Virus record (IMG/VR): IMGVR_UViG_3300025697_002467
Length of the DNA: 50,006 nt
DNA from: a virus
Taxonomy: Duplodnaviria > Heunggongvirae > Uroviricota > Caudoviricetes
Direction: 5' to 3' (one strand)
Shown in pieces: positions 30,554 through 45,299 of the stretch. Positions within the stretch are counted from its first letter, which is position 1, and each line of letters begins with the position of its first letter. The translations under genes and the position numbers were made by a program. The notes below the pieces were generated by a model that was not told the origin of the DNA, did no database searches, and saw only the letters and a program-made list of their open reading frames with translations.

Positions 30554-30831
30554 ACGATAAAGACCTTGAAAATTTATGTTCAATCGAGCCGACTCAACCA
30601 TGTCCTGACTGTGGGCAAATTGCCCTTGCTACATGGGTAGACATTGGTTTTGGACCATACTCTCAGCAGGCTGGTCCTTATTCCTGTACTGAATGTGATT
30701 GGGTAGAGCCTTGTCCTTATGTGAGTCCTGAAAAATGTGATCGGTGTGTGAGTTTTGACACCTGTTACACTCGTTTGGAGAAAAAATATGTGAGTTTTGA
30801 CACCTGTTACACTCGTTTGGAGAAAAAATAA
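30550..30831 (+). CDS. zinc-ribbon protein
   Basis: CPDC..VDIGFG....GPYSCTECDW. Confidence 0.75.
   Translation: MNDKDLENLCSIEPTQPCPDCGQIALATWVDIGFGPYSQQAGPYSCTECDWVEPCPYVSPEKCDRCVSFDTCYTRLEKKYVSFDTCYTRLEKK
30747..30830. repeat. exact 42-bp tandem duplication at gene 3' end
   Basis: TGTGAGTTTTGACACCTGTTACACTCGTTTGGAGAAAAAATA x2. Confidence 0.95.
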
Positions 30832-34050: not shown

Positions 34051-34395
34051 ATGAGTTATTATGTATTGGATAGCAACCTGAAACTGAAGTTTGTGAGAAA
34101 TCTGTCTGTCGGATGGTTACAGCATTTGGTTAGGTTTGGATTTACTGTACAGCATTTGTCAGACAGTACCATAAATATCCTAAAAAACCCCTGTGATCAC
34201 AACGAGATTGGTGGATGCTCCAGTCACATAAATGCTTTGGAAGCAGTCCAAGAATATATAGTACCAGGTTCAAAAATTACCGTAGTTTACCCAGAAAATG
34301 ACTGGACTGTCGTTCGTACCATTTTTGAGAAAAAGGGTAAAAAAGAAATTATCGGCCATATGAAACCTGTATGGAAAACTAAGGAGACAGCATGA
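34051..34395 (+). CDS. hypothetical protein
   Basis: AGGAGG RBS; 114 aa. Confidence 0.65.
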   Translation: MSYYVLDSNLKLKFVRNLSVGWLQHLVRFGFTVQHLSDSTINILKNPCDHNEIGGCSSHINALEAVQEYIVPGSKITVVYPENDWTVVRTIFEKKGKKEIIGHMKPVWKTKETA

Positions 34396-34973
34396 AACTG
34401 AAAGACCGCCTGTTGGCATTCGTTGACGTTGAAACGACTGGGTTAGACCCAGAAAAACACGAGATGATCGAGTTTGCCTGTAAAACTTCTGACGGCAAGA
34501 AAATCCAGTTCAAGATCAAGCCTCAACACATCGAAACAGCTCACCCAAGAGCCTTGGAAGTGAACGGATACACCCCAGAACGATGGAAAGATGCCATAGA
34601 GCCTAAACAGGCTGCTGCCATTATCCAAGAGTGGTTGGAAGAGGTTATCATCATCGGTCAAAGCATTAAATTTGATGTGGGTTTTATCAAAGCCTTGTTG
34701 AAACGGGAAGGTGTTGAATATGATAACAATTTCCTGAGATATTCTGGAGACACTGTTACCTTGGCACTGGCACATTTAGTCCCCAAAGGACTCACGAACC
34801 TATCACTGAAATCTATCATGCAATTCCTTAATATGGAACCTGAGCCTGATGTCCATGAGGCTATGAATGGAGTGGACTGCTGCAAAGCTGTATGGGAAAA
34901 GTTAACAGATACAGGCTTCGATGCTTCCAAGTTCCACAAACATTACTCCGGCCCGGAGTACGATAAAGAGTAA
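34392..34973 (+). CDS. DEDDh 3'-5' exonuclease (DnaQ/RNase T-like)
   Basis: ExoI DVETTGLDP..HEMIEFA; ExoII FDVGFI; ExoIII HEAMNGV (H.A..D variant). Confidence 0.85.
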   Translation: MKLKDRLLAFVDVETTGLDPEKHEMIEFACKTSDGKKIQFKIKPQHIETAHPRALEVNGYTPERWKDAIEPKQAAAIIQEWLEEVIIIGQSIKFDVGFIKALLKREGVEYDNNFLRYSGDTVTLALAHLVPKGLTNLSLKSIMQFLNMEPEPDVHEAMNGVDCCKAVWEKLTDTGFDASKFHKHYSGPEYDKE

Positions 34974-34982
34974 ACAGCTCTT

Positions 34983-35022
34983 TGGCTTAGTTTTCGTTTC
35001 CCGTGGGTTGTTGATGTAAGAA
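34983..35022 (+). promoter_or_regulatory. repeated motif, copy P6, upstream of cas operon
   Basis: TGGCTTAGTTT-TCGTTTC-CCGTGGGTTGTTG-ATGTAAGAA. Confidence 0.8.
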
Positions 35023-35077
35023 TGATGGTCTTAACTATACGGAGACAAATATTACTCTTAGAGTAATATAAAAAATA

Positions 35078-37885
35078 ATGGATAAATATCTTCAACTCAC
35101 TCAAAACATTGCAGTTTTGTCTGGTCTGTTTCATGACTGGATTAAAGCCTCGGAGTTTTTTATAACAAAACTCCGAAAAAACGAAATTGTCCAAGACCCT
35201 CTAAGACATGATTGGCTATCTGCCGTGTTTTTTTCTTCTATAGTTGGGAAACAATCCGACCTTGAATGGCTTCAACAACTTATTGATGGGAATATCCCAT
35301 CAGAATTTAAAATACCTGACAACCCATTAGAAAATCTCCCAGACACAGCTGCCGTTATATTTTGGTTAATTTTAACGCATCACAGATTACCGATAATTGA
35401 TCGATATAGAGGAAAAAACTGTGGGGATTTTCGGAATCTTTTTAAGTTTATTTCGGCTGAGTGGGGATACCAACATCTTAAAACCCAAGGCTTAGAGAAA
35501 TGTTTTAAATTCCCTAAAGGATTACCAGACCATTCCCCTATTTTAGTACAACACATCCAGAAAGCAGCTCAGGATTTATATAATTCTATAGGTACGCTGG
35601 AGGAAGTAATCCAAAAAAGAAATCTTCGTACAATCCTGACTCAAGCTCGTATGGCTCTCATGTTAGCGGATCATTTCCATTCGTCCCAAGATGCTGACCC
35701 AAACTGGCCGAAGACATATCCTGTTTTTGCTAATACGTACCGAGACACTGGTAAATTAAAGCAACGGCTTGATGAACACCTTGTCGGAGTAGCTAATCAG
35801 GCAGCCTTCAATGTGAAATTTCTGCATGAGCTTGTGGACATTAATCACAAACACCAAGCCTACCCGTCACTCGTTATTAAAAGCCCCGCTGAATTTCAAT
35901 GGCAAGAAGATGCTGTCACAGTTATCCGAAACCAGTATCAAAAAGGAGGCTTTTTTGGGGTCAGTATTGCCAGTACAGGAACAGGTAAAACATTAGGTAA
36001 TGCTAAAATTATGCAAGCTCTATCGAAAGACGGGAAAGGACTTCATTATACATCAGCCCTTGGACTCCGAACCTTAACCCTACAAACTGGATTGGAATAC
36101 CGTGACCGGATTGGATTAACGGATAAAGATATGGCCGTTCTGATTGGTTCTACTGACAACCTGAATCCATTCTATGCAGGTTCAGAATCTGAAGACTGTT
36201 TATTAGATAATGAATTGATTGGGGGCTTGGCAGAAGCAGGGTTATCCCCAGTATTACGAGATGAAAAGAGCTGTCGGTTTTTCCACACTCCTGTGGTGGT
36301 TTGTACTATTGACCATCTAGTTGGGGCTACGGAAACTAGAAAGGGTGGCCGGTATATCCTACCTCTCCTTCGATTGATGTCTTCTGACCTAGTTATTGAT
36401 GAAATAGATAATTTCTCAAATGGAGACTCCGTTGTTATTGGCCATTTAATCCATCTTGCTGGGATGTTAGGAAGAAAAGTCCTCATTTCCTCAGCCACAA
36501 TTCCTCCTGATATGGCAGAAGGGTATTTTAATGCTTATCAGGCCGGTTGGGAAGAATTTTGTAAAAACCAATCTGAAAACCCTGCTGTTAGTTGTTTCTG
36601 GACAGATGAGTTTGGAGCAACACTTGAATCTGTGGAGACCCTGACTGAGTATCGGAAATACCATCAAGAATTTGTTGAACAGCGTGTCATAGAATTAGCT
36701 AAGAAACCAATCAGACACCGAGTTAATATAGGGGAAATCCAACCTGTTAAAAATGAAAGCCGTAAAAAAACAAAAAACAGATTTTTTAAATCCATGACAG
36801 ATTGTTGTTTCGAATTACACAAGGACAATTACACTAAAGATGCCAAAACAGGTAAATTAGTGAGTATTGGTGTTATCAGAGTCAATACTATAAATACTTG
36901 TGTATCACTTACAAAACATCTCTTGAAAACCAAACTTCCACCTAATATCGATATCCGAACAATGGCCTACCACAGCCAACAAGTTATGGCCTTGCGTAAT
37001 GTTCAGGAGACTCATTTAGATAACGTGTTGAAAAGACACAAAGGTTCTCAAGCAATTTTTGATAACCCCATCATTAGAGAGCATGTAGATAATAGCTCGG
37101 CTGATCATGTGATATTTATTCTTGTAGCTACTTCAATCGAAGAAGTTGGTAGAGATCATGATTTTGATTGGGGTGTAATCGAACCATCCTCATTTCGGGC
37201 AATTATTCAGCTAATAGGACGTATATTACGACATAGGATGAAAAATGTTACACAACCTAATGTAACGATTATGCAGTATAACTTAAAAGGCTTGCTTGGA
37301 GACCGACTCCCTTTCAAACTCCCAGGCTATGAATCTACTCAGCATGTTTTCAATTCTCATGATATTACTAACCTCATTGATAAGGAGACTATCTGTGAAG
37401 GTTTGAATGCTACACCAAGAATTACCAAGAACACCCCCTTAGACCCCCAAAACAAGCTGGTAGACCTCGAACACACAATCACTCATGAAACCCTATCTGA
37501 TTACACCCAACAAGGGCCAGAGAGTCTTGCAGGCTGGGTTAAGACGTTTTGGTGGATGACTGCCACACCTCAAAAAATGAATAAGTTTCGGTCAGATTAT
37601 CCCTGCCTTCGAGTCTTCTTGATCCCCACGGATGATGGTCCTGTTTTTTTTGAAAAAACAAAAAGACATGGGATTCGAAAAATCGAATCCTTGTATGGAG
37701 TTAGGGTAAACAAGTCTGATGATGAAATGCCTTTGAAAAGATTATGGCTTCATAGAGATTTTGAAACTATTATTGATGGTTTGGACCTTATGATACACGG
37801 AGAAATCAACCTACCAACGTATGGTAAGGATAAAAATGAAATTCGTTATGAGTATTCTGACCAGTTTGGGTTAATTGCAAAATAG
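35078..37885 (+). CDS. cas3: type I-F Cas3 nuclease-helicase lacking the N-terminal Cas2 domain
   Basis: starts at the HD domain (GLFHDWIKAS, DPLRHDW, MLADH); Walker A ASTGTGKT; LGLRTLTLQTG; LVIDEID; SSAT; YHSQ; EVGRDHDFDW; QLIGRILRHR. Confidence 0.95.
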   Translation: MDKYLQLTQNIAVLSGLFHDWIKASEFFITKLRKNEIVQDPLRHDWLSAVFFSSIVGKQSDLEWLQQLIDGNIPSEFKIPDNPLENLPDTAAVIFWLILTHHRLPIIDRYRGKNCGDFRNLFKFISAEWGYQHLKTQGLEKCFKFPKGLPDHSPILVQHIQKAAQDLYNSIGTLEEVIQKRNLRTILTQARMALMLADHFHSSQDADPNWPKTYPVFANTYRDTGKLKQRLDEHLVGVANQAAFNVKFLHELVDINHKHQAYPSLVIKSPAEFQWQEDAVTVIRNQYQKGGFFGVSIASTGTGKTLGNAKIMQALSKDGKGLHYTSALGLRTLTLQTGLEYRDRIGLTDKDMAVLIGSTDNLNPFYAGSESEDCLLDNELIGGLAEAGLSPVLRDEKSCRFFHTPVVVCTIDHLVGATETRKGGRYILPLLRLMSSDLVIDEIDNFSNGDSVVIGHLIHLAGMLGRKVLISSATIPPDMAEGYFNAYQAGWEEFCKNQSENPAVSCFWTDEFGATLESVETLTEYRKYHQEFVEQRVIELAKKPIRHRVNIGEIQPVKNESRKKTKNRFFKSMTDCCFELHKDNYTKDAKTGKLVSIGVIRVNTINTCVSLTKHLLKTKLPPNIDIRTMAYHSQQVMALRNVQETHLDNVLKRHKGSQAIFDNPIIREHVDNSSADHVIFILVATSIEEVGRDHDFDWGVIEPSSFRAIIQLIGRILRHRMKNVTQPNVTIMQYNLKGLLGDRLPFKLPGYESTQHVFNSHDITNLIDKETICEGLNATPRITKNTPLDPQNKLVDLEHTITHETLSDYTQQGPESLAGWVKTFWWMTATPQKMNKFRSDYPCLRVFLIPTDDGPVFFEKTKRHGIRKIESLYGVRVNKSDDEMPLKRLWLHRDFETIIDGLDLMIHGEINLPTYGKDKNEIRYEYSDQFGLIAK

Positions 37886-37898
37886 AAAGGATTTGAAA

Positions 37899-39134
37899 AT
37901 GGATATTGAAATCCAGAAGTTTTTTGATGAACGTATCAAGAAAAAAATTAAGCATGGAAGTCAAAATATACCTGATGAACAGATGCCTGATTTTGAGAAC
38001 AAAATCAGGGAGAATTTTGTTTTGGAAACGTGGTTGCCAATAGCTGCGGAAAAAGCAAAATTCGTTACTCTCCGAACCCACTCAGGGAAAATGACTCACC
38101 CTAGTGCCCGGACATCTTCGTTCGTAGCCAAGAAACCCCAAGAAAATGATGGTTATCTTCGAACAGGGAATGTTTCTGTAGAAACAGATATGTGTGGAGG
38201 TGGGGCAGCCAGCCTAATCTATTATGCCTTCATGAACCTCAAGCTGACTGATGGGCAAACCATTTTAAGCCACCTACAAAAGTCTACTGACTATATCAAA
38301 CAGCAATTCGATATCCCTACAATGTCGTTCGATGACATCCAAAAAGGTTTTCTGGCTGTTTTTGATGAAACAGATGAAGACATTTATACTGATGGTTTAC
38401 TCCGAGAAGTATTTTTCCCAGTTGACGATGGTTATCATCTTCTGTCCATTACGAGCCCTTCTGGGATCATTTTTGCCCAAACTGACAAAATTGATAAAAT
38501 CCGTTTCTCAGAAGAAACTAAAGAAATCCGAAAACTTAAACGGCAGGGAAAACCGTCAGATAAAGGTTTTACCGAATTTTTTGACCTGACCATTGCCAAC
38601 TATGGAGGTTCTCAACCTCAGAACATCGGAGCTCTCAACAGCAAGTACAAAAAAGTATACTTGTTATCAGCTTCCCCACCTCAGTTTAAAAAACGGAAAA
38701 CCAAGCTACCCAAAACGAACTTTATGTCTATTCTGTGGGTAAAAGGCTTTCAGAGGTCTTTCCAGAAATTTCATACTCAGATAGCTATTAAAAAACAAAA
38801 CCAACATAGCCGTCTCCGACGTGATAACCATATTCGGTTCATTGTGGACCAAATCTCTAAACAGATGTGGGCAGTTCGACAGACTGAGCCTGGATGGTCT
38901 AATTCAGATACCTATAGATCATTGCCCAGACATCAAAAAATCTGGTTGGATCAACAGTATGCTGGCAACCGCTATGACAATCCCGATTGGATGGGCAAAG
39001 TAATTGCTGATATTAGCAGATGGTTCATCAACTCTTATAACACCCTGCTCGGTTCTGATGCAGAGTTGCTTGACGATACTGATTTGAGACATGTGGAAAC
39101 TATCATTCAAGAATGTGAGGAGGCCATCCGATGA
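37899..39134 (+). CDS. csy1: type I-F Cascade large subunit Csy1/Cas8f
   Basis: THSGKMTHPSA, GYLRTGNV, FFPVDDGYHLLS, NYGGSQPQNIGALNS, WSNS...LP.HQKIWLD; start re-called at MDIEIQ. Confidence 0.93.
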   Translation: MDIEIQKFFDERIKKKIKHGSQNIPDEQMPDFENKIRENFVLETWLPIAAEKAKFVTLRTHSGKMTHPSARTSSFVAKKPQENDGYLRTGNVSVETDMCGGGAASLIYYAFMNLKLTDGQTILSHLQKSTDYIKQQFDIPTMSFDDIQKGFLAVFDETDEDIYTDGLLREVFFPVDDGYHLLSITSPSGIIFAQTDKIDKIRFSEETKEIRKLKRQGKPSDKGFTEFFDLTIANYGGSQPQNIGALNSKYKKVYLLSASPPQFKKRKTKLPKTNFMSILWVKGFQRSFQKFHTQIAIKKQNQHSRLRRDNHIRFIVDQISKQMWAVRQTEPGWSNSDTYRSLPRHQKIWLDQQYAGNRYDNPDWMGKVIADISRWFINSYNTLLGSDAELLDDTDLRHVETIIQECEEAIR

Positions 39135-40024
39135 AAGACATTTTACTGATACCAAAGATACAAGCTGAAAGTGCCAATGCTCATTCCAGTCCATACTCCG
39201 GCGGATTTCCTGCTATGACGGCTTGGATGGGTTTTGCTCATTTGCTTGAAAGAAAACTTCAACAGACTTCTTATGCAGGGATCAAGTTTAAAAGTGTTGG
39301 GGTGGTGAGTCATGATTTTACTTTGAGAAATTTTAAGCACCCCAAGGATTTCTGTTCCGCTATTATTGGCAGACGTTTACCCCCTCAAAACCCTAGTCAA
39401 AAAGGGGCACCTCTGATTCCCGACTTAACCTGTGACCTAACGGTTTCTATAGTGTTGGAATGTTCAGGGATGGGGATGATAGATCATGAAGATTTCACCA
39501 ACACTATTAGGAAAATCATTTATAGTCTTAAATTGGCTAGTGGTGATATTGTAAACCTCCAAAAACCAGAAGTTCTCACCGTCCATGATGAGAAAAGCCA
39601 AAAAACCCTGCTCCGTCGGCTTATGCCAGGTAACTGTCTGATTGAACGTCGGGATCTGATACAGAAAGCTATGGAAAACGGCCAAGATGCCCTTGAAGCT
39701 GTTCTTTCTCATACTTGTATAGAACACTCATATAATGAGGTAACAGATAAGTGGGAAAGTAAACGGAAAACATCAGGTTGGCTGGTTCCAATTACTACAG
39801 GTTATCAAGGACTCACTAAATTGGGTCCTGCTGAAAACACACGAGATGCAAACGATACCCCACACCGATTTGCTGAAGCTATTGTAACATTATGTGAATT
39901 TATCATGCCATATAAAATTGTCGAACTTGATAACATGCTATGGCACTATCATTCTGATATGAACAAAGACCTTTATCTTTGTCAACAGAATAAACCTACA
40001 TACTCAGGAGAAAACTATGTCTAA
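39131..40024 (+). CDS. csy2: type I-F Csy2/Cas5f
   Basis: IQAESANA.SSPYS.GFPAMTAWMGFAH.LERKL; GWLVPITTGYQGL; HRFAE; L..MLWHY. Confidence 0.95.
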   Translation: MKDILLIPKIQAESANAHSSPYSGGFPAMTAWMGFAHLLERKLQQTSYAGIKFKSVGVVSHDFTLRNFKHPKDFCSAIIGRRLPPQNPSQKGAPLIPDLTCDLTVSIVLECSGMGMIDHEDFTNTIRKIIYSLKLASGDIVNLQKPEVLTVHDEKSQKTLLRRLMPGNCLIERRDLIQKAMENGQDALEAVLSHTCIEHSYNEVTDKWESKRKTSGWLVPITTGYQGLTKLGPAENTRDANDTPHRFAEAIVTLCEFIMPYKIVELDNMLWHYHSDMNKDLYLCQQNKPTYSGENYV

Positions 40025-41048
40025 AGTCAAAATCCCCGGGAATTTGTCATTCCGCAAGCGTTTAGAACCCTCAAAAGGAATCCTTTTTGGAACTTCCTGG
40101 GACAAACGCCGAGAAATTTGTGTCCCTTTAACCAATGAACTTATCACTGTCAGAGGTGGTAAAACTCACCACCAAAATTTCCCTGACAATCGTGAGAAAG
40201 GTGAGTCTGAGTTGGGTGATGCCAACATCCACACTCTTGATTCCTGTTTGTTGTCCAAGGATCACGATACCGTGCGTTTAACTTACACCTTGAAAGTTCT
40301 CAACGGTGTTGCCGGTATGGAAAGCTGTAATGACAAAGAATTCCTTAACCTGTTCGAGGAATGCTTAAAAGAAAAACTGGATACTGTTGGAGTGAAAGTT
40401 CTGGCCCATCGTTATGCCACCAACATTGCCAATGGTCGTCCTTTGTGGAAAAACCGTGAAGCTACCCATATTGAAACGGTCGTTCGTTGCCGTGGCAGTG
40501 AGACAGAGTGGGTTTTTGACGGTAAAGAAATCCCATTGCATACTTTCGATTATGAAAGTTCTGCATTGACAGGGCTAACTCAAGTCATTGAAGATGCTTT
40601 GTTAGGTAACACTGACCTTATCATTCTGGAAGTGTCCTCATACGCTTTGGTCGGTCAAGGTCAGCCGGTATTCCCCAGTCAAGAATTCATTCAGGATCAA
40701 GGGAATGGTTTCAGCTCGAAGAAAGACGGGAAGAAAAGCAAAGTTTTATACTTCCCCGAAGATGTAGCCGGCCTGCACCCGCAAAAAATCGGTAATGCCA
40801 TCCGTACTATTGATTCATGGTATGGAGACGGTGTCTCTCCGATTGCTGTGGAACCTTACGGTGCCCAGCCTACTTTCAATACCCATCACCGTAGCCCTTA
40901 CGAACAAAAGGACTTTTATTCCATGTTGGTGAAATTTGTGAACAAGGAAGAATTGACCGAATCCGAAGTTCATTACTTCATGGCCATGCTGGTCAAAGGT
41001 GGTGTGTTTGGTGCAGCCAAATCCAAGCCTAAACCCAAATCCAAGTAG
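40017..41048 (+). CDS. csy3: type I-F Csy3/Cas7f
   Basis: LSF.KRL.PS; RYATNIANGRPLWKNR; VFPSQEF; KSKVLY; HPQKIGNAIRTIDSWY; IAVEPYG; MAMLVKGGVFG. Confidence 0.97.
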   Translation: MSKVKIPGNLSFRKRLEPSKGILFGTSWDKRREICVPLTNELITVRGGKTHHQNFPDNREKGESELGDANIHTLDSCLLSKDHDTVRLTYTLKVLNGVAGMESCNDKEFLNLFEECLKEKLDTVGVKVLAHRYATNIANGRPLWKNREATHIETVVRCRGSETEWVFDGKEIPLHTFDYESSALTGLTQVIEDALLGNTDLIILEVSSYALVGQGQPVFPSQEFIQDQGNGFSSKKDGKKSKVLYFPEDVAGLHPQKIGNAIRTIDSWYGDGVSPIAVEPYGAQPTFNTHHRSPYEQKDFYSMLVKFVNKEELTESEVHYFMAMLVKGGVFGAAKSKPKPKSK

Positions 41049-41060
41049 GAGAAAAAGAAC

Positions 41061-41630
41061 ATGAAATACTACCAAGAAATTACGTTGATCCCTGACCCTG
41101 TTGGGATGCCCCTGAGTTATTTACAGCAACGTCTGTTCTATCAGGTTCATGCAGCCTTGGCTCGTGAACCTGGGGATAATTCCGTGGGTATATCTTTCCC
41201 TGATTACGATGGGGAAGGATGCCAACTGGGAAATAAAATAAGGTTGTTAGCTCCGACTGAGGATATTTTAAAAAACCTTCAACTTCGACACCTACTTCTC
41301 AGGTTAAGTGATTATTCTCATTTGTCAGATATCCGACAGGTGCCTGAGAAAATTGAAAGCTATGCTTTTTTTCGTCGGGTTCAACCGAAAACCAGCCTTG
41401 GCAGCATAGCTCGTCGAAAAGCTAGACGTGAAGGGATTACAGTTGATGAAGCCTTGAATCTTTTAGGACCACCTAAAAAAACACCCAAACTCCCCGCTGT
41501 TTCAATGGAGAGTAAAAGTTCAGGTCAACAATATCCTTTGTTTGTTTCCCGAGTTTTATCTGATGAGCCAGCTACGGGGTCATACAGTACGTATGGATTG
41601 AGTTCCACAGGTACTGTACCTTTATTTTAA
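41061..41630 (+). CDS. cas6f: type I-F Cas6f/Csy4 crRNA endoribonuclease
   Basis: MKYYQEITL.PD; QVH.AL; GISFPDY; LG.KIRL; RRVQPK; S.SSGQ.YPLF; YSTYGLS..TVPLF. Confidence 0.95.
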   Translation: MKYYQEITLIPDPVGMPLSYLQQRLFYQVHAALAREPGDNSVGISFPDYDGEGCQLGNKIRLLAPTEDILKNLQLRHLLLRLSDYSHLSDIRQVPEKIESYAFFRRVQPKTSLGSIARRKARREGITVDEALNLLGPPKKTPKLPAVSMESKSSGQQYPLFVSRVLSDEPATGSYSTYGLSSTGTVPLF

Positions 41631-41748
41631 TCAAAACAAAAAACCTAAGTGGTTATGGCTACTTAGGTTTTTTGCTTTTAACATTGGTAAAAACATGTAA
41701 TCATGTATAGGTCTTTGAAAACTCAATAGTTTTATGATTTATGCTCCT
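41631..41748 (+). promoter_or_regulatory. CRISPR leader
   Basis: AT-rich 118 bp between cas6f and first repeat; IHF-like CTTTGAAAACTCAATAGTTTTA at 41713-41734. Confidence 0.8.
41637..41674 (+). terminator. 14-bp perfect inverted repeat in the leader (cas-operon terminator or leader motif)
   Basis: CAAAAAACCTAAGT-ggttatggct-ACTTAGGTTTTTTG. Confidence 0.7.
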
Positions 41749-43680
41749 GTGAACTGCCGAGTAGGCAGCTTAGAATAACAGTTTGTACCGGTATTGTTTG
41801 GCAGATGTGTGAACTGCCGAGTAGGCAGCTTAGAATCTGCTCTGGAAATTTTGAGTATCCATACTGCCGTGAACTGCCGAGTAGGCAGCTTAGAATTGTT
41901 TGATTTTCTGACTCATTCCACCGAACGGGTGAACTGCCGAGTAGGCAGCTTAGAATTGTTTTGTCGAACCGACATTGATTTTTGAAAAGTGAACTGCCGA
42001 GTAGGCAGCTTAGAATTGGAGGTCAGAAAGGAAACGGTAACTATGTCTAGTTAACTGCCGAGTAGGCAGCTTAGAATTCAGACAATAATTCAAGAAAGTA
42101 TCAATTAAAGTGAACTGCCGAGTAGGCAGCTTAGAATTGGAAAACCATAGAATCAGAGAAGCTGGATTCGTGAACTGCCGAGTAGGCAGCTTAGAATACA
42201 TGTGTCGTAACCGTGTTCACGAAAAATTCGTGAACTGCCGAATAGGCAGCTTAGAATGGGTAACGATGACGTTGGAAAATGTAGACAGAGGTACACTGCC
42301 GAACAGGCAGCTTAGAATGACAGGTCGCATCGTGAATTTCTGGATCTGAAGTTAACTGCCGAGTAGGCAGCTTAGAATATTGATATTGATGCTAATAACG
42401 GCAGTGATGAGTGAACTGCTGAATAAGCAGCTTAGAATACAAGTCACAATATTGGATTAGCAAGCACATAGTTAACTGCCGAATAGGTAGTTTAGAATTT
42501 GCTTTTTTGTGACTGTACCTAGAACCTGTGGTTAACTGCCGAGTAGGCAGCTTAGAATCGAAGAACACGTCGGATCTCCCTGAAAATATCGTGAACTGCC
42601 GAACAGGCAGCTTAGAATAGTTCATCACACAAGGCCATTAGCTCGTCCACCGTTAACTGCTGAACAGGTAGTTTAGAATACAGGGAATCTGCGGACTTTG
42701 CCAACCTTGATGTAAACTGCCGAATAGGCAGCTTAGAATTGGTCAACCGAACTACACAAAATGTCTTTTGCATGAACTGCCGAGTAGGTAGTTTAGAATT
42801 GTCCTGAAATGCCTGTTGTCACAAATGAGATGTTAACTGCCGAATAGGCAGTTTAGAATTATGTGGGATCAAAGCTCTCCCAAGGGTGGGTGTTAACTGC
42901 CGAGCAGGCAGCTTAGAATCATGTATAAGTTGCTCTCAATCCACAATTTAGGTGAACTGCTGGATAAGTAGTTTAGAATAATTTAATCAGGTCATTCATA
43001 ACGGCCATTTTAGTTAACTGCCGAATAGGCAGCTTAGAATTCTTGTTGGATGCAAGTGTCTTATCAACATTTGTTAACTGCCGAATAGGCAGCTTAGAAT
43101 TGAGACAGATCCCAAAGCTGAAATCGAATCCAGTGAACTGCCGAACAGGCAGCTTAGAATAAGGAACAGAAGCAGCTAGTTCAATTGGTACTGTTAACTG
43201 CCGAACAGACAGCTTAGAATGAAATTCCTTCATCCACATATTCGGCAACTATGTGAACTGCCGAACAGGTAGTTTAGAATTTTATGGAACTCACTACGAC
43301 CGCCAGACCGGATCGTGAGCTGCCGAATAGGTAGTTTAGAATCTATTGACACCAAAGCAGATTGAATCCGCGGGAACTGCCGAATAGGCAGCTTAGAATG
43401 ATGAAACTCTATGACGAGGAACGAGTGGAGGGTGAACTGCTGAATAAGCAGCTTAGAATACAATCGAATCAATGCCGTCTAAAAGCTCCGCAGGAACTGC
43501 TGGATAAGCAGCTTAGAGTTCGTATGGAGTAACCGTGAAAAACTGCCGGACAGGTAGTTTAGAATTTAGAAATAAGGGTGTGGCATTGAAGCCGAGTGAA
43601 AACTGCCGAATAGGCAGCTTAGAATAAGCACATCAGCTATGTTAAACCGCACTGCGTGAACTGCTGAATAAGTAGCTTAG
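41749..43680 (+). CRISPR. type I-F CRISPR array, 33 repeats / 32 spacers
   Basis: 28-bp consensus GTGAACTGCCGAGTAGGCAGCTTAGAAT (CTGCC/GGCAG stem); spacers mostly 32 bp (range about 18-34); uniform at leader end, heterogeneous distally; last repeat truncated at GCTTAG. Confidence 0.99.
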
Positions 43681-43717
43681 CTTAGTTTCCAAAAGTTGTG
43701 GGTTGTTGGGGTAGAAG
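43680..43717 (+). promoter_or_regulatory. repeated motif, copy P7, fused to the last CRISPR repeat
   Basis: GCTTAGTTT-CCAAAAG-TTGTGGGTTGTTG-GGGTAGAA. Confidence 0.85.
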
Positions 43718-43751: not shown

Positions 43752-45299
43752 ATGGCCAAAACAATCATTGATAGTGTTACTTTAAATTTTACTGACCTTA
43801 CCGGTGCCAAGACAGGCTGTACCAAACTCGGTTCCAACAAATTCTGGAAGGGCTGGGTTGAAGACCTTGGAGACGGCACAGGCAATTTCGAGTGTTGCTG
43901 GGGTGCTACAGGCACACCAGGTAAAGACACCGGAAGCAAACGAGGTATTGACCTTGATGATGCCCAAACCTTGCTCAATAAGAAAGTTAAATCAAAAGTA
44001 AAAAAAGGTTATACCCTCCTTGAAGTTCGTTCCGATGAGGAAGAGGTGGCCAAGGCTGCTGACAACGGTGTAAACCTCACTGCTGACAAGAAAGCCCCCA
44101 AAAAGAAAAAAGCTGTCAAGAAATCAACTTTCAATCCTGCTATCGGAAACTTGCTGGCTACCATCTATAATGAAACCAGCCGTGTTGTCACAGCAGGTCT
44201 TTCCTCTCAGGCTGGCTCATCTGCTGATAACCCTATAGGTAACCTGTCTGATGCCCAGTTAGACGTAGGTGGTGGCATTTTGGACGATATAGAGGCATTC
44301 CTGACACAGGAACTTGGCCATGAAGACACAGCTAACCGTGTTCAAACCTTGGCTTTGTCTGCTGATGGTGTACCTTCTGATGGTGTCATTGATTTGACTA
44401 ATCAGTACATGTCGAATGTTCCGAGAGAAATTGACCGTTCACAAAGAGGTAGAGGCAACCTGCATCGTCTGGTTATTTCATCCTTTGAACGCTTGGAAGA
44501 GCAACGAAAGTTTTTACAGTTGCTTCGTGATGCTCACCTGACCAAAGGTGTCTTTAAAGCTGCTGCTAATGCTTCTACAGGTGGTAAAGAACAGATTTGG
44601 TATGAAGGCCTCAATTGCCTTATCGAATTGTGTGAGTCTGGATCAGCCGAATTCAAGAAAGTGTCAGACATATTCAACAACAACCAATCTCGTAAAAACC
44701 AGAACTGGTTCAGTGGTGGACGTTCTACTCTCCGCTTGAAACGGATTTTCAAGTTCACTCGTAATGGTACAGACAAACAGTTTGCCAAGTATGCTAAAGA
44801 GATGGCTTCCAAGCCCAATGCAGTCGGCAATATTTTTGCTTGGCACGGCACACGTACTGAGAACCTTCTCGGTATCAGTAAAACTGGCCTCTTGATGCCT
44901 GAAAACTTGCCTCGTGGTATCCACGTATCAGGTAAAGCTTTCGGCAAAGGGATTTATCACGCCCCTGATATTTCAAAAATAAGAACCATTCACGGTGTGC
45001 AAACAGATGGTACGAATGGAGCTTTGAAGTCTATGAACTATACCTCTTCAAGGGGAGCTTATTACGGTTCAAATAACACTTCAAATTCGGCCTTCATGTA
45101 CCTGCAGGAAGTTGCTTTAGGTAACGGTGATGTTCATACAGCCCCTTGCTGGGACAAACACCGTCCGAATAACTACCCGAAGAACGATTTCATTTATGCA
45201 GCAGCCGGCGGTTGTAGCACGTTATCCCATGATGAATTGGTAACTTTTTCTCAGGATGCTCAAATATTCCGCTATTTGCTTGAGATTGAAGCAAGATAA
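43752..45299 (+). CDS. WGR + PARP-regulatory + PARP catalytic domain ADP-ribosyltransferase
   Basis: WGR: SNKFW...WGATG; PARP_reg: IGNLSDAQL..G..IL...LTNQYMSNVP; catalytic H-Y-E: AWHGTR, GKAFGKGIY, KSMNY, EVALG, HDELVTF..Q..RYL. Confidence 0.92.
   Translation: MAKTIIDSVTLNFTDLTGAKTGCTKLGSNKFWKGWVEDLGDGTGNFECCWGATGTPGKDTGSKRGIDLDDAQTLLNKKVKSKVKKGYTLLEVRSDEEEVAKAADNGVNLTADKKAPKKKKAVKKSTFNPAIGNLLATIYNETSRVVTAGLSSQAGSSADNPIGNLSDAQLDVGGGILDDIEAFLTQELGHEDTANRVQTLALSADGVPSDGVIDLTNQYMSNVPREIDRSQRGRGNLHRLVISSFERLEEQRKFLQLLRDAHLTKGVFKAAANASTGGKEQIWYEGLNCLIELCESGSAEFKKVSDIFNNNQSRKNQNWFSGGRSTLRLKRIFKFTRNGTDKQFAKYAKEMASKPNAVGNIFAWHGTRTENLLGISKTGLLMPENLPRGIHVSGKAFGKGIYHAPDISKIRTIHGVQTDGTNGALKSMNYTSSRGAYYGSNNTSNSAFMYLQEVALGNGDVHTAPCWDKHRPNNYPKNDFIYAAAGGCSTLSHDELVTFSQDAQIFRYLLEIEAR

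Follow-up and report, generated by a model that had tools for sequence, protein, structure and literature searches.

How can a type I-F CRISPR-Cas locus without adaptation genes hold an array of 32 spacers, and is its interference machinery still intact? The question is raised by a locus on a 402,136-bp phage-like contig from Ace Lake, an Antarctic lake, of which a stretch of 50,006 nt (the window) was analysed together with about 8 kb of downstream extension. Signs of a phage are the size of the contig, its origin from 0.1 µm fractions, PHROG hits and a promoter-like motif that is repeated in the window; capsid and terminase genes were not seen in these 50,006 nt. In our assessment, the locus is probably a functional, interference-only type I-F1 system that a jumbo phage infecting anaerobic lake bacteria has domesticated and that operates by the mechanism proposed below. 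Its interference-only character had been put forward in an earlier note on this DNA and is supported, within 58 kb of the contig, by the gene set and by a Cas3 protein devoid of Cas2.

Gene content and classification of the locus

The CRISPR slot is bordered by an exonuclease gene and a PARP gene and comprises the following features (window coordinates):

34392..34973, + strand: DEDDh exonuclease, left border of the slot; the copy of a sister phage is 85% identical
34984..35021, + strand: phage promoter-like motif, one of 19 in the window, immediately 5' of cas3 and at the usual place of cas1-cas2
35049..35069, no strand: perfect 10-bp inverted repeat between GGAG and the cas3 start codon, a possible operator or translational hairpin
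35078..37885, + strand: Cas3f nuclease-helicase without a Cas2 domain, 935 aa
37899..39134, + strand: Csy1/Cas8f, 411 aa, full length, with the helical-bundle region at the C-terminus
39131..40024, + strand: Csy2/Cas5f
40017..41048, + strand: Csy3/Cas7f, unusually diverged
41061..41630, + strand: Csy4/Cas6f, putative catalytic histidine at position 30
41631..41748, + strand: shortened leader
41749..43683, + strand: CRISPR array, 33 repeats of 28 nt (22 distinct variants) and 32 spacers
42619..42651, + strand: spacer 15, matching hsdS (type I restriction-modification) with a CC PAM
43679..43717, + strand: phage promoter-like motif overlapping the last repeat
43752..45299, + strand: WGR-PARP ADP-ribosyltransferase, right border of the slot; the sister phage copy is 88% identical

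Cas3, Csy1–4, 33 repeats and 32 spacers make up a full-size type I-F1 interference module, the five cas and csy genes being uninterrupted open reading frames with neither frameshift nor stop. Csy1–4 exceed the Pfam cut-offs across nearly the full profiles (PF09611, PF09614, PF09615, and PF09618) and Csy1 aligns end to end with a bacterial Csy1; the complete set of Cascade genes and the 32-spacer array described before are, thus, borne out. A catalytic role of His30 in Csy4 is expected from that of His29 in P. aeruginosa Cas6f (PMC4678832). A sigma-70 promoter scan gave hits at chance level only.

Repeats of 28 nt with a hairpin and spacers of 32 nt are those of type I-F1; Cas2 fused to Cas3 and cas1 in the locus (58 kb searched), both hallmarks of this type, are absent. 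Other variants are ruled out—type I-F2, which has no Cas8, by the presence of Csy1; type I-F3, the CAST form with adjacent TniQ/Tns and no Cas3, by the presence of Cas3 and by the exonuclease and PARP neighbours; and the compact ICP1 type, whose short Cas8f lacks the helical bundle, by the full length of Csy1.

Loss of Cas2 and apparent absence of cas1

Against the Cas3f profile TIGR02562, the phage Cas3 scores 631.6 bits (cut-off 565.95), with an alignment that starts at profile position 115 of 1110; with P. aeruginosa Cas2/3, it starts at residue 115. Ahead of the HD motif there are 18 residues in the phage protein versus 122 in the closest homologues, and the deletion is exactly the 104-residue Cas2 domain. 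The gap between the exonuclease gene and cas3 measures 104 nt, in-frame stops lie just 5' of the cas3 ATG, and the motif-to-ATG distance is 56 nt, in agreement with the earlier description of a Cas3 that begins at the HD domain shortly after the phage motif. An N-terminal Cas2 hidden by a sequencing error, considered in that description, is excluded because two further assemblies agree with the window across the cas3 start (L002 and L003, 100% and 99.99%).

Searches of the window and its ~8-kb downstream extension for cas1 and cas2 yielded nothing at E ≤ 10 with HMMs for Cas1 and Cas2f that were made from close relatives and nothing below E 0.2 by tblastn, which upholds the reported absence of cas1 from the window. 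As the searches covered 58 kb of the 402,136-bp contig, the system might be split, with adaptation genes located elsewhere on it. We regard this as very unlikely, given that the I-F relatives examined have Cas2 fused to Cas3 and, on every contig of sufficient length, cas1 next to it, that the corresponding slot of the sister phage is free of cas1/cas2 too, and that most huge-phage systems lack adaptation genes (PMC7162821).

Catalytic residues and divergence of the Cas proteins

All six HD metal ligands of Cas3 are kept (H19, D20, H101, H102, D198, and H234), as are the helicase motifs—Walker A, DExD, SAT, and the motif VI arginines. Nuclease activity had been doubted on account of HDWIKA standing in for the usual HDLGKA. 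The HDWIKA motif is real; HDLGKA, however, is the wrong reference because W predominates among relatives (94 of 119), and only G22I is unusual. As far as conserved residues can tell, the doubt is mostly answered.

It is unlikely, in our view, that the module binds without cutting, as a silencer or decoy, or is decaying. Such a state would be in keeping with Cas3 substitutions at nearly invariant sites (G22I, D445N, P686S, V687I, and A713I), with the strong divergence of Cas7f, and with the heterogeneous repeats and shortened spacers on the trailer side of the array, but is at odds with the retained ligands and helicase motifs, the open reading frames free of frameshift or stop, and an HD domain that is modelled with high confidence. 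The AlphaFold model is middling (pLDDT 59.6, pTM 0.39); it resembles Cas2/3 structures and adds little.

The five ORFs share 43–51% identity with their best bacterial relatives. Despite this distance, just 13% of otherwise invariant columns have changed in Cas3, which points to purifying selection, versus 36% in Cas7f, which diverges at about twice the rate of the other Cas proteins; no close relative of Csy3 was found among 1.84 billion representatives.

The closest Cas proteins are bacterial and accompanied by cas1 and a fused Cas2, GC3 is lower in four cas genes (0.33–0.39) than in the phage genes tested (0.41–0.49), and hsdS on mobile islands is among the possible targets of bacterial arrays. 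All of this would suit a bacterial cassette that was captured recently, already loaded with spacers that mirror the enemies of its donor; capture of a pre-loaded array was one of the two routes named in the earlier note. We consider such a capture quite improbable, however: among billions of proteins, no relative exceeds about 50% identity; the tree shows a long separate branch; repeats 1–32 all end in a T, which is found in 0 of 68 arrays of related loci; and no spacer is shared with the 2191 spacers of those loci.

Leader and array

The repeat stems likewise speak for a functional system. Across the 22 repeat variants, the stems comprise 155 Watson–Crick pairs, 9 wobble pairs and a single broken pair (of 165), although no more than about four distinct changes underlie this stem-preserving variation. 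A search of GTDB did not turn up the exact repeat, and comparison of the array with phages and plasmids returned repeat matches only.

The leader measures 118 nt, where 32 of 38 bacterial relatives have 128–133 nt; about 12 bp have been lost. It contains a distal inverted-repeat-like element (41625–41634), a terminator-like hairpin (41638–41673) at the expected distal IHF site, a proximal inverted repeat (41684–41692) and a proximal IHF-like site (41708–41720). The distal IHF site is gone (3 mismatches versus 0–1 in 42 of 51 hosts) and the inverted repeats are spaced by 59 instead of 69–72 bp. Hence, the leader differs from that of type I-F1, in which two IHF sites and two inverted repeats stand in phase, and the earlier observation of a retained IHF-like site and inverted repeat applies to the proximal elements, not to the distal IHF site.

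These features bear on the main idea of the earlier note, namely that Cas1-Cas2/3 of the host, together with IHF, still extends the array of this same machine. The proximal inverted repeat (−65) and IHF-like site (−41) occupy the modal host positions, 7 of the first 8 repeats are identical, most repeats start with the GT needed by integration, I-F systems are present in Desulfobacterota, and one lake run contains a bacterial-type I-F repeat-spacer unit as well as a leader-like contig. The two IHF sites and the two inverted repeats have, however, all been described as necessary (bioRxiv 2023.05.26.542337), which conflicts with the lost distal site and the altered spacing. Furthermore, the recent acquisition read from the uniform leader-proximal repeats finds no support in the array comparison: three other assemblies and four runs all show the same leader and the same spacers 1–2, although this is a weak test, given a nearly clonal population and the tendency of contigs to omit rare variants. 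The sole change seen in the phage array is an internal loss of spacers 5–6. Ongoing extension by the host is weakened by these features of the leader, and we rate it as doubtful. A third route, absent from the earlier note, is that the phage once owned a cas1-cas2/3 and later lost it. Most likely, the spacers were gained in the past within the phage lineage, by its own since-lost or by borrowed Cas1-Cas2/3, and the array would now change mostly through deletion and repeat conversion.

Spacer targets and host

One of the 32 spacers has a convincing target, which lies in genomes other than that of the lake host. Two Desulfobacteria genomes contain sequences that agree with spacer 15 in 30 of the spacer's first 32 nt and have CC on their 5' side, with an expectation by chance of about 3e-5. 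The first of these matches falls within a Pfam Methylase_S gene next to hsdM, and the second is on a contig that bears hsdM-hsdS. The CC PAM is seen at these two best matches of a single spacer, where the codons partly favour CC. Given the conserved hsdS helix, a mobile island may be targeted instead of the host's chromosome. The matches suggest a sulfate reducer, and the hosts are probably anaerobic lake bacteria of the Desulfobacterota. Spacer 15 had no match among 301 genomes of the order to which a Methylococcales MAG belongs, in a search run without a positive control.

Pattern searches with spacers 1, 16, and 25 found nothing in IMG/VR; for spacer 25, 251 Desulfobacteria genomes were likewise without a match. 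Spacer 14 resembles a phage methyltransferase at the peptide level only (9 mismatches, TC flank) and was rejected, as were the partial matches of spacers 2, 3, and 6, which are at chance level.

A sister phage with another subtype in the same slot

In the sister phage, the same exonuclease-to-PARP slot holds a type I-G system in the order csb1-csb2-array-cas3g-csb3-array, without cas1/cas2 between the bordering genes. Cross-targeting between the two phages was not found in the DNA compared. Speculatively, a jumbo-phage clade may keep this one slot for class 1 CRISPR modules which are stripped of adaptation parts, swapped between subtypes (I-F, I-G), shielded from anti-CRISPRs and from the Cas proteins of the host (through removal of Cas2 and rapid change of Cas7f) and used to cut host restriction-modification genes, the mixed, stem-preserving repeats of both arrays reflecting a Cas1-independent, recombination-based upkeep. 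As the sister phages co-occur and carry different subtypes at a single site, they allow a direct comparison of how phages choose and exchange CRISPR weapons.

Proposed mechanism

During infection, the phage promoter would drive cas3-csy1-4, and the array transcript would be cut by Cas6f. Targets with a CC PAM would then be located by the Csy complex, whose Cas8f helical bundle may recruit monomeric Cas3 for the degradation of host defence loci and rival mobile elements. Cas1 is described in the literature as repressing Cas2/3; being unable to form a Cas1-Cas2/3 complex, a Cas3 without Cas2 would need no Cas1 and escape restraint by that of the host. An engineered, Cas2-truncated I-F2 Cas3 is still recruited to Cascade (PMC12956352).

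Comparison with known systems

With canonical type I-F1 (P. aeruginosa PA14; PDB 5B7I, 8FLJ), the locus shares the order cas3-csy1-4-leader-array, the full-length Cas8f, the 28-nt repeat with a 5-bp stem, 32-nt spacers, the HD and SF2 motifs, and possibly the CC PAM, seen here at the two best matches of one spacer. It differs in lacking cas1 and the Cas2 domain, in its shortened leader without the distal IHF site, in repeats ending in T, and in the phage promoter motif upstream.

The I-F system of Vibrio phage ICP1 is likewise phage-borne and aimed at host defence, and it occupies a variable locus which in other isolates holds a different counter-defence gene, Odn (PMC11656645); in the slot described here, a second CRISPR subtype takes the place of such a gene. 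In contrast to our phage, ICP1 keeps cas1 and Cas2/3 and requires Cas1 for interference because its short Cas8f lacks the helical bundle (bioRxiv 2024.03.09.584257); Cas3 identity to ICP1 is only about 30%.

Adaptation-less phage CRISPR is already known, even from Ace Lake: most huge-phage systems lack adaptation genes (Al-Shayeb 2020, PMC7162821), and the 528-kb phage CL24 of this lake, a different phage, carries an adaptation-less type I-C (PMC7416419). Interference genes and an array on a large phage (here a 402,136-bp phage-like contig), without cas1/2/4 (here no cas1 or cas2 within 58 kb), are common to all of them. Our locus is distinct in its subtype—the string "I-F" is absent from the main text of both papers—and in that Cas2 loss meant trimming a fused protein. 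Cas2-less Cas3f also occurs on other mobile elements, i.e., L019–L021, near a probable relaxase, and L129 (IMG/VR), where Cas3f begins at the HD domain and is found with csy genes and an array, without a cas1/cas2 match in the DNA examined; with 28–30% identity and a cas3 divergent from the csy genes, these are independent lineages.

A literature phrase search, with incomplete coverage of huge-phage and Cas2/3 papers, found no earlier description of a Cas2-less phage I-F1. New here are the match of spacer 15 to hsdS, which extends ICP1-style counter-defence to restriction-modification, the type I-G system of the sister phage in the same slot, and the divergence of Cas7f at about twice the rate of the other Cas proteins. 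The locus offers a natural test of whether an I-F1 Cas3 works without Cas2 and Cas1 and, for tool builders, a smaller I-F1 nuclease.

No adaptation genes in the window

The type I-F1 locus lies between an exonuclease gene and a WGR-PARP gene, and its Cas3 lacks the Cas2 domain, as an earlier note on this DNA had claimed:

35078-37885: cas3, with a TIGR02562 match beginning at profile position 115

Only 18 residues precede the HD motif of the predicted protein, compared with 122 in its closest homologues; hence, the 104 missing residues correspond to the Cas2 domain together with its linker. The 104-nt gap 5' of cas3 contains a phage motif and in-frame stops, and a sequencing error is excluded by two other assemblies (L002 and L003), which carry the same junction. 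At 35049-35069, a perfect 10-bp inverted repeat is flanked by GGAG on one side and the cas3 ATG on the other; it might serve as an operator or, by forming a hairpin, draw a distant ribosome-binding site nearer. No trace of cas1 or cas2 was found in the window, in agreement with the earlier note, or in the 8 kb beyond it, which together cover about 58 kb of the 402-kb contig. The complete Cascade and the 32-spacer array described there are likewise present, with Csy1-4 all full and 33 repeats enclosing the 32 spacers.

Signs of function

Cas3 retains its metal ligands (H19, D20, H101, H102, D198, H234) as well as the Walker A, DExD, SAT and motif VI residues. The earlier doubt about nuclease activity, raised by the HDWIKA sequence, is thereby largely answered. 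W21 is the majority residue among relatives; G22I is unusual, as are D445N, P686S, V687I and A713I. Identity between the Cas proteins and their best bacterial relatives is only 43-51%, and their branch in the tree is long; despite this divergence, their genes contain zero stops or frameshifts, and 13% of otherwise invariant columns are altered in Cas3, which together suggest purifying selection over a long time. The repeats comprise 22 variants, yet pairing is preserved at 164 of 165 stem positions, a count resting on about four distinct changes.

An engineered I-F2 Cas3 truncated of Cas2 still docks on Cascade (PMC12956352). In the Vibrio phage ICP1, interference requires Cas1 because Cas8f is devoid of its helical bundle (bioRxiv 2024.03.09.584257); in contrast, the Cas8f of the window is of full length. 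Since Cas1 holds Cas3 in check while both are part of the Cas1-Cas2/3 complex (bioRxiv 2023.05.26.542337), the loss of Cas2 would also release this Cas3 from any host Cas1.

Csy3 (Cas7f, 40017-41048) deviates at 46 of 128 invariant columns and diverges at about twice the rate of the other Cas proteins (distance ratio 2.6 versus 1.1-1.45 in the other four), with no relative closer than 45% among 1.84 billion representatives. The GC3 of its gene is phage-like (0.45). Our guess is that the divergence lets Csy3 evade anti-CRISPRs or avoid being mixed with subunits of the host; relaxed selection may also account for it.

Leader, array and origin of the spacers

The leader measures 118 nt, versus 128-133 nt in 32 of 38 relatives, and its inverted repeats are spaced by 59 instead of 69-72. 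Of the elements noted earlier, the inverted repeat on the proximal side is retained at -65, as is an IHF-like site at -41, but a terminator-like hairpin occupies the position of the former distal IHF site; both IHF sites and both inverted repeats have been described as necessary (bioRxiv 2023.05.26.542337). The same hairpin (41638-41673), which is strong and has a T run behind it, lies 3' of csy4; it likely terminates cas transcription ahead of the array, in which case the array would require a promoter of its own.

The leader and spacers 1-2 are unchanged across three other assemblies and four runs, and spacers 5-6 are deleted in one run. Some of these sources possibly derive from identical samples, the population is close to clonal, and contigs conceal rare variants; this weak comparison therefore fails to support the recent acquisition that had been read from the array. 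An array still supplied with spacers by a host we regard as rather unlikely. A terminal T, seen in none of 68 arrays of related loci, marks repeats 1-32, and no spacer is shared with these arrays. Capture of a pre-loaded array is the least probable origin; we lean towards spacers having accumulated at an earlier time within the phage lineage, with the array now nearly static.

In the lake run X2, one contig combines a related I-F repeat that has a terminal A with a spacer absent from the window array (compared at 42291-42317 and 43070), and a second lake contig is similar to the leader at 41706-41739; a bacterial I-F system may be resident in the lake.

Spacer targets and host

In two Desulfobacteria genomes, 30 of the first 32 nt of spacer 15 are matched, with CC on the 5' side (~3e-5 expected by chance). 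One match falls within an hsdS gene adjoining hsdM; the other lies on a contig with hsdM-hsdS, where weaker matches occur within that hsdS. The closest GTDB Cas3 belongs to a Desulfobacterium MAG, with Methylococcales and Spirochaetia close behind; zero spacer 15 matches were obtained in 301 genomes of the order to which a Methylococcales MAG belongs, a search run without positive control. The spacer 15 matches and the closest Cas3 make it likely, though unproven, that the host belongs to Desulfobacterota and that a restriction-modification system is the target. For the remaining 31 spacers, the sequence collections searched yielded no convincing match, and spacer 16 had no DNA match. The translation of spacer 16 (42680-42711) presumably resembles an excisionase helix-turn-helix, and that of spacer 22 (43041-43072) what we take to be the start of a PIN domain.

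Source phage and the exonuclease-to-PARP slot

The window is densely packed with genes, the majority of unknown function, and contains 19 copies of a two-box motif, each oriented toward downstream genes. Its proteins were placed on a 402,136-bp contig, and we read its source as a jumbo phage; no capsid genes lie in the window. The same DNA is present in other assemblies, whose JGI samples are recorded by Panwar et al. as anoxic-zone 0.1 µm fractions of Ace Lake from 2008, 2013 and 2014 (PMC7416419); all runs listed with it are salt-lake metagenomes. The 528-kb type I-C Ace Lake phage of that study was rejected as a different phage. An exact 42-nt tandem duplication is located at 30747-30830. 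Sugar-nucleotide genes (DegT, epimerase, WbqC, APS kinase) of the phage (L032:10516-12878, downstream extension) and a relative (L136:8244-15003) possibly form a DNA or surface modification cluster.

A sister phage from the same lake, with a ligase 87% identical and the same motif, carries csb1, csb2, a 5-repeat array, cas3g, csb3 and a second array after the orthologous exonuclease:

L138:8789-15998 (also L163, L161): sister-phage type I-G module, two arrays

As predicted from its genes, this type I-G interference module is complete; neither cas1 nor cas2 was matched. On a separate contig, whose source assembly also contains csb2 and csb3, the same repeat family stops immediately ahead of the motif and of the PARP orthologue; across these contigs, we infer that the module ends at the PARP gene. 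The sister-phage repeats are mixed, too, with compensatory changes preserving the stem, and one spacer is present in two diverged versions. The WGR-PARP-regulatory-PARP catalytic protein (43752-45299) is 88% identical in the sister phage. In a third relative (80%), the ligase is directly followed by an RNA ligase (L136:3051-6470), no CRISPR module occurs within the 15 kb examined, and the ~25 kb containing the slot in the phage of the window are absent.

Comparison with known systems

Huge-phage CRISPR systems are as a rule devoid of cas1/2/4 (PMC7162821), and an adaptation-less phage CRISPR has already been reported from Ace Lake (PMC7416419). Cas2-less Cas3f proteins are also encoded on unrelated mobile elements (L019-L021, L129), together with divergently oriented csy genes and an array; no cas1 match was obtained in the DNA examined there. 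At L008:3583-4073, a truncated cas1 is situated directly 3' of a short array, ahead of an intact cas2/3. Within an incomplete coverage of the literature, no description of a Cas2-less phage I-F1 or of an I-F/I-G swap was found. The slot, with I-F in the phage of the window and I-G in its sister, is reminiscent of ICP1, in which a single locus is occupied by either CRISPR or Odn (PMC11656645). While the locus is predicted to act as a type I-F1 interference system, it departs from type I-F1 in cas1, the Cas2 fusion and the leader; thus, we file it among the adaptation-less phage CRISPR-Cas systems, as a new variant.
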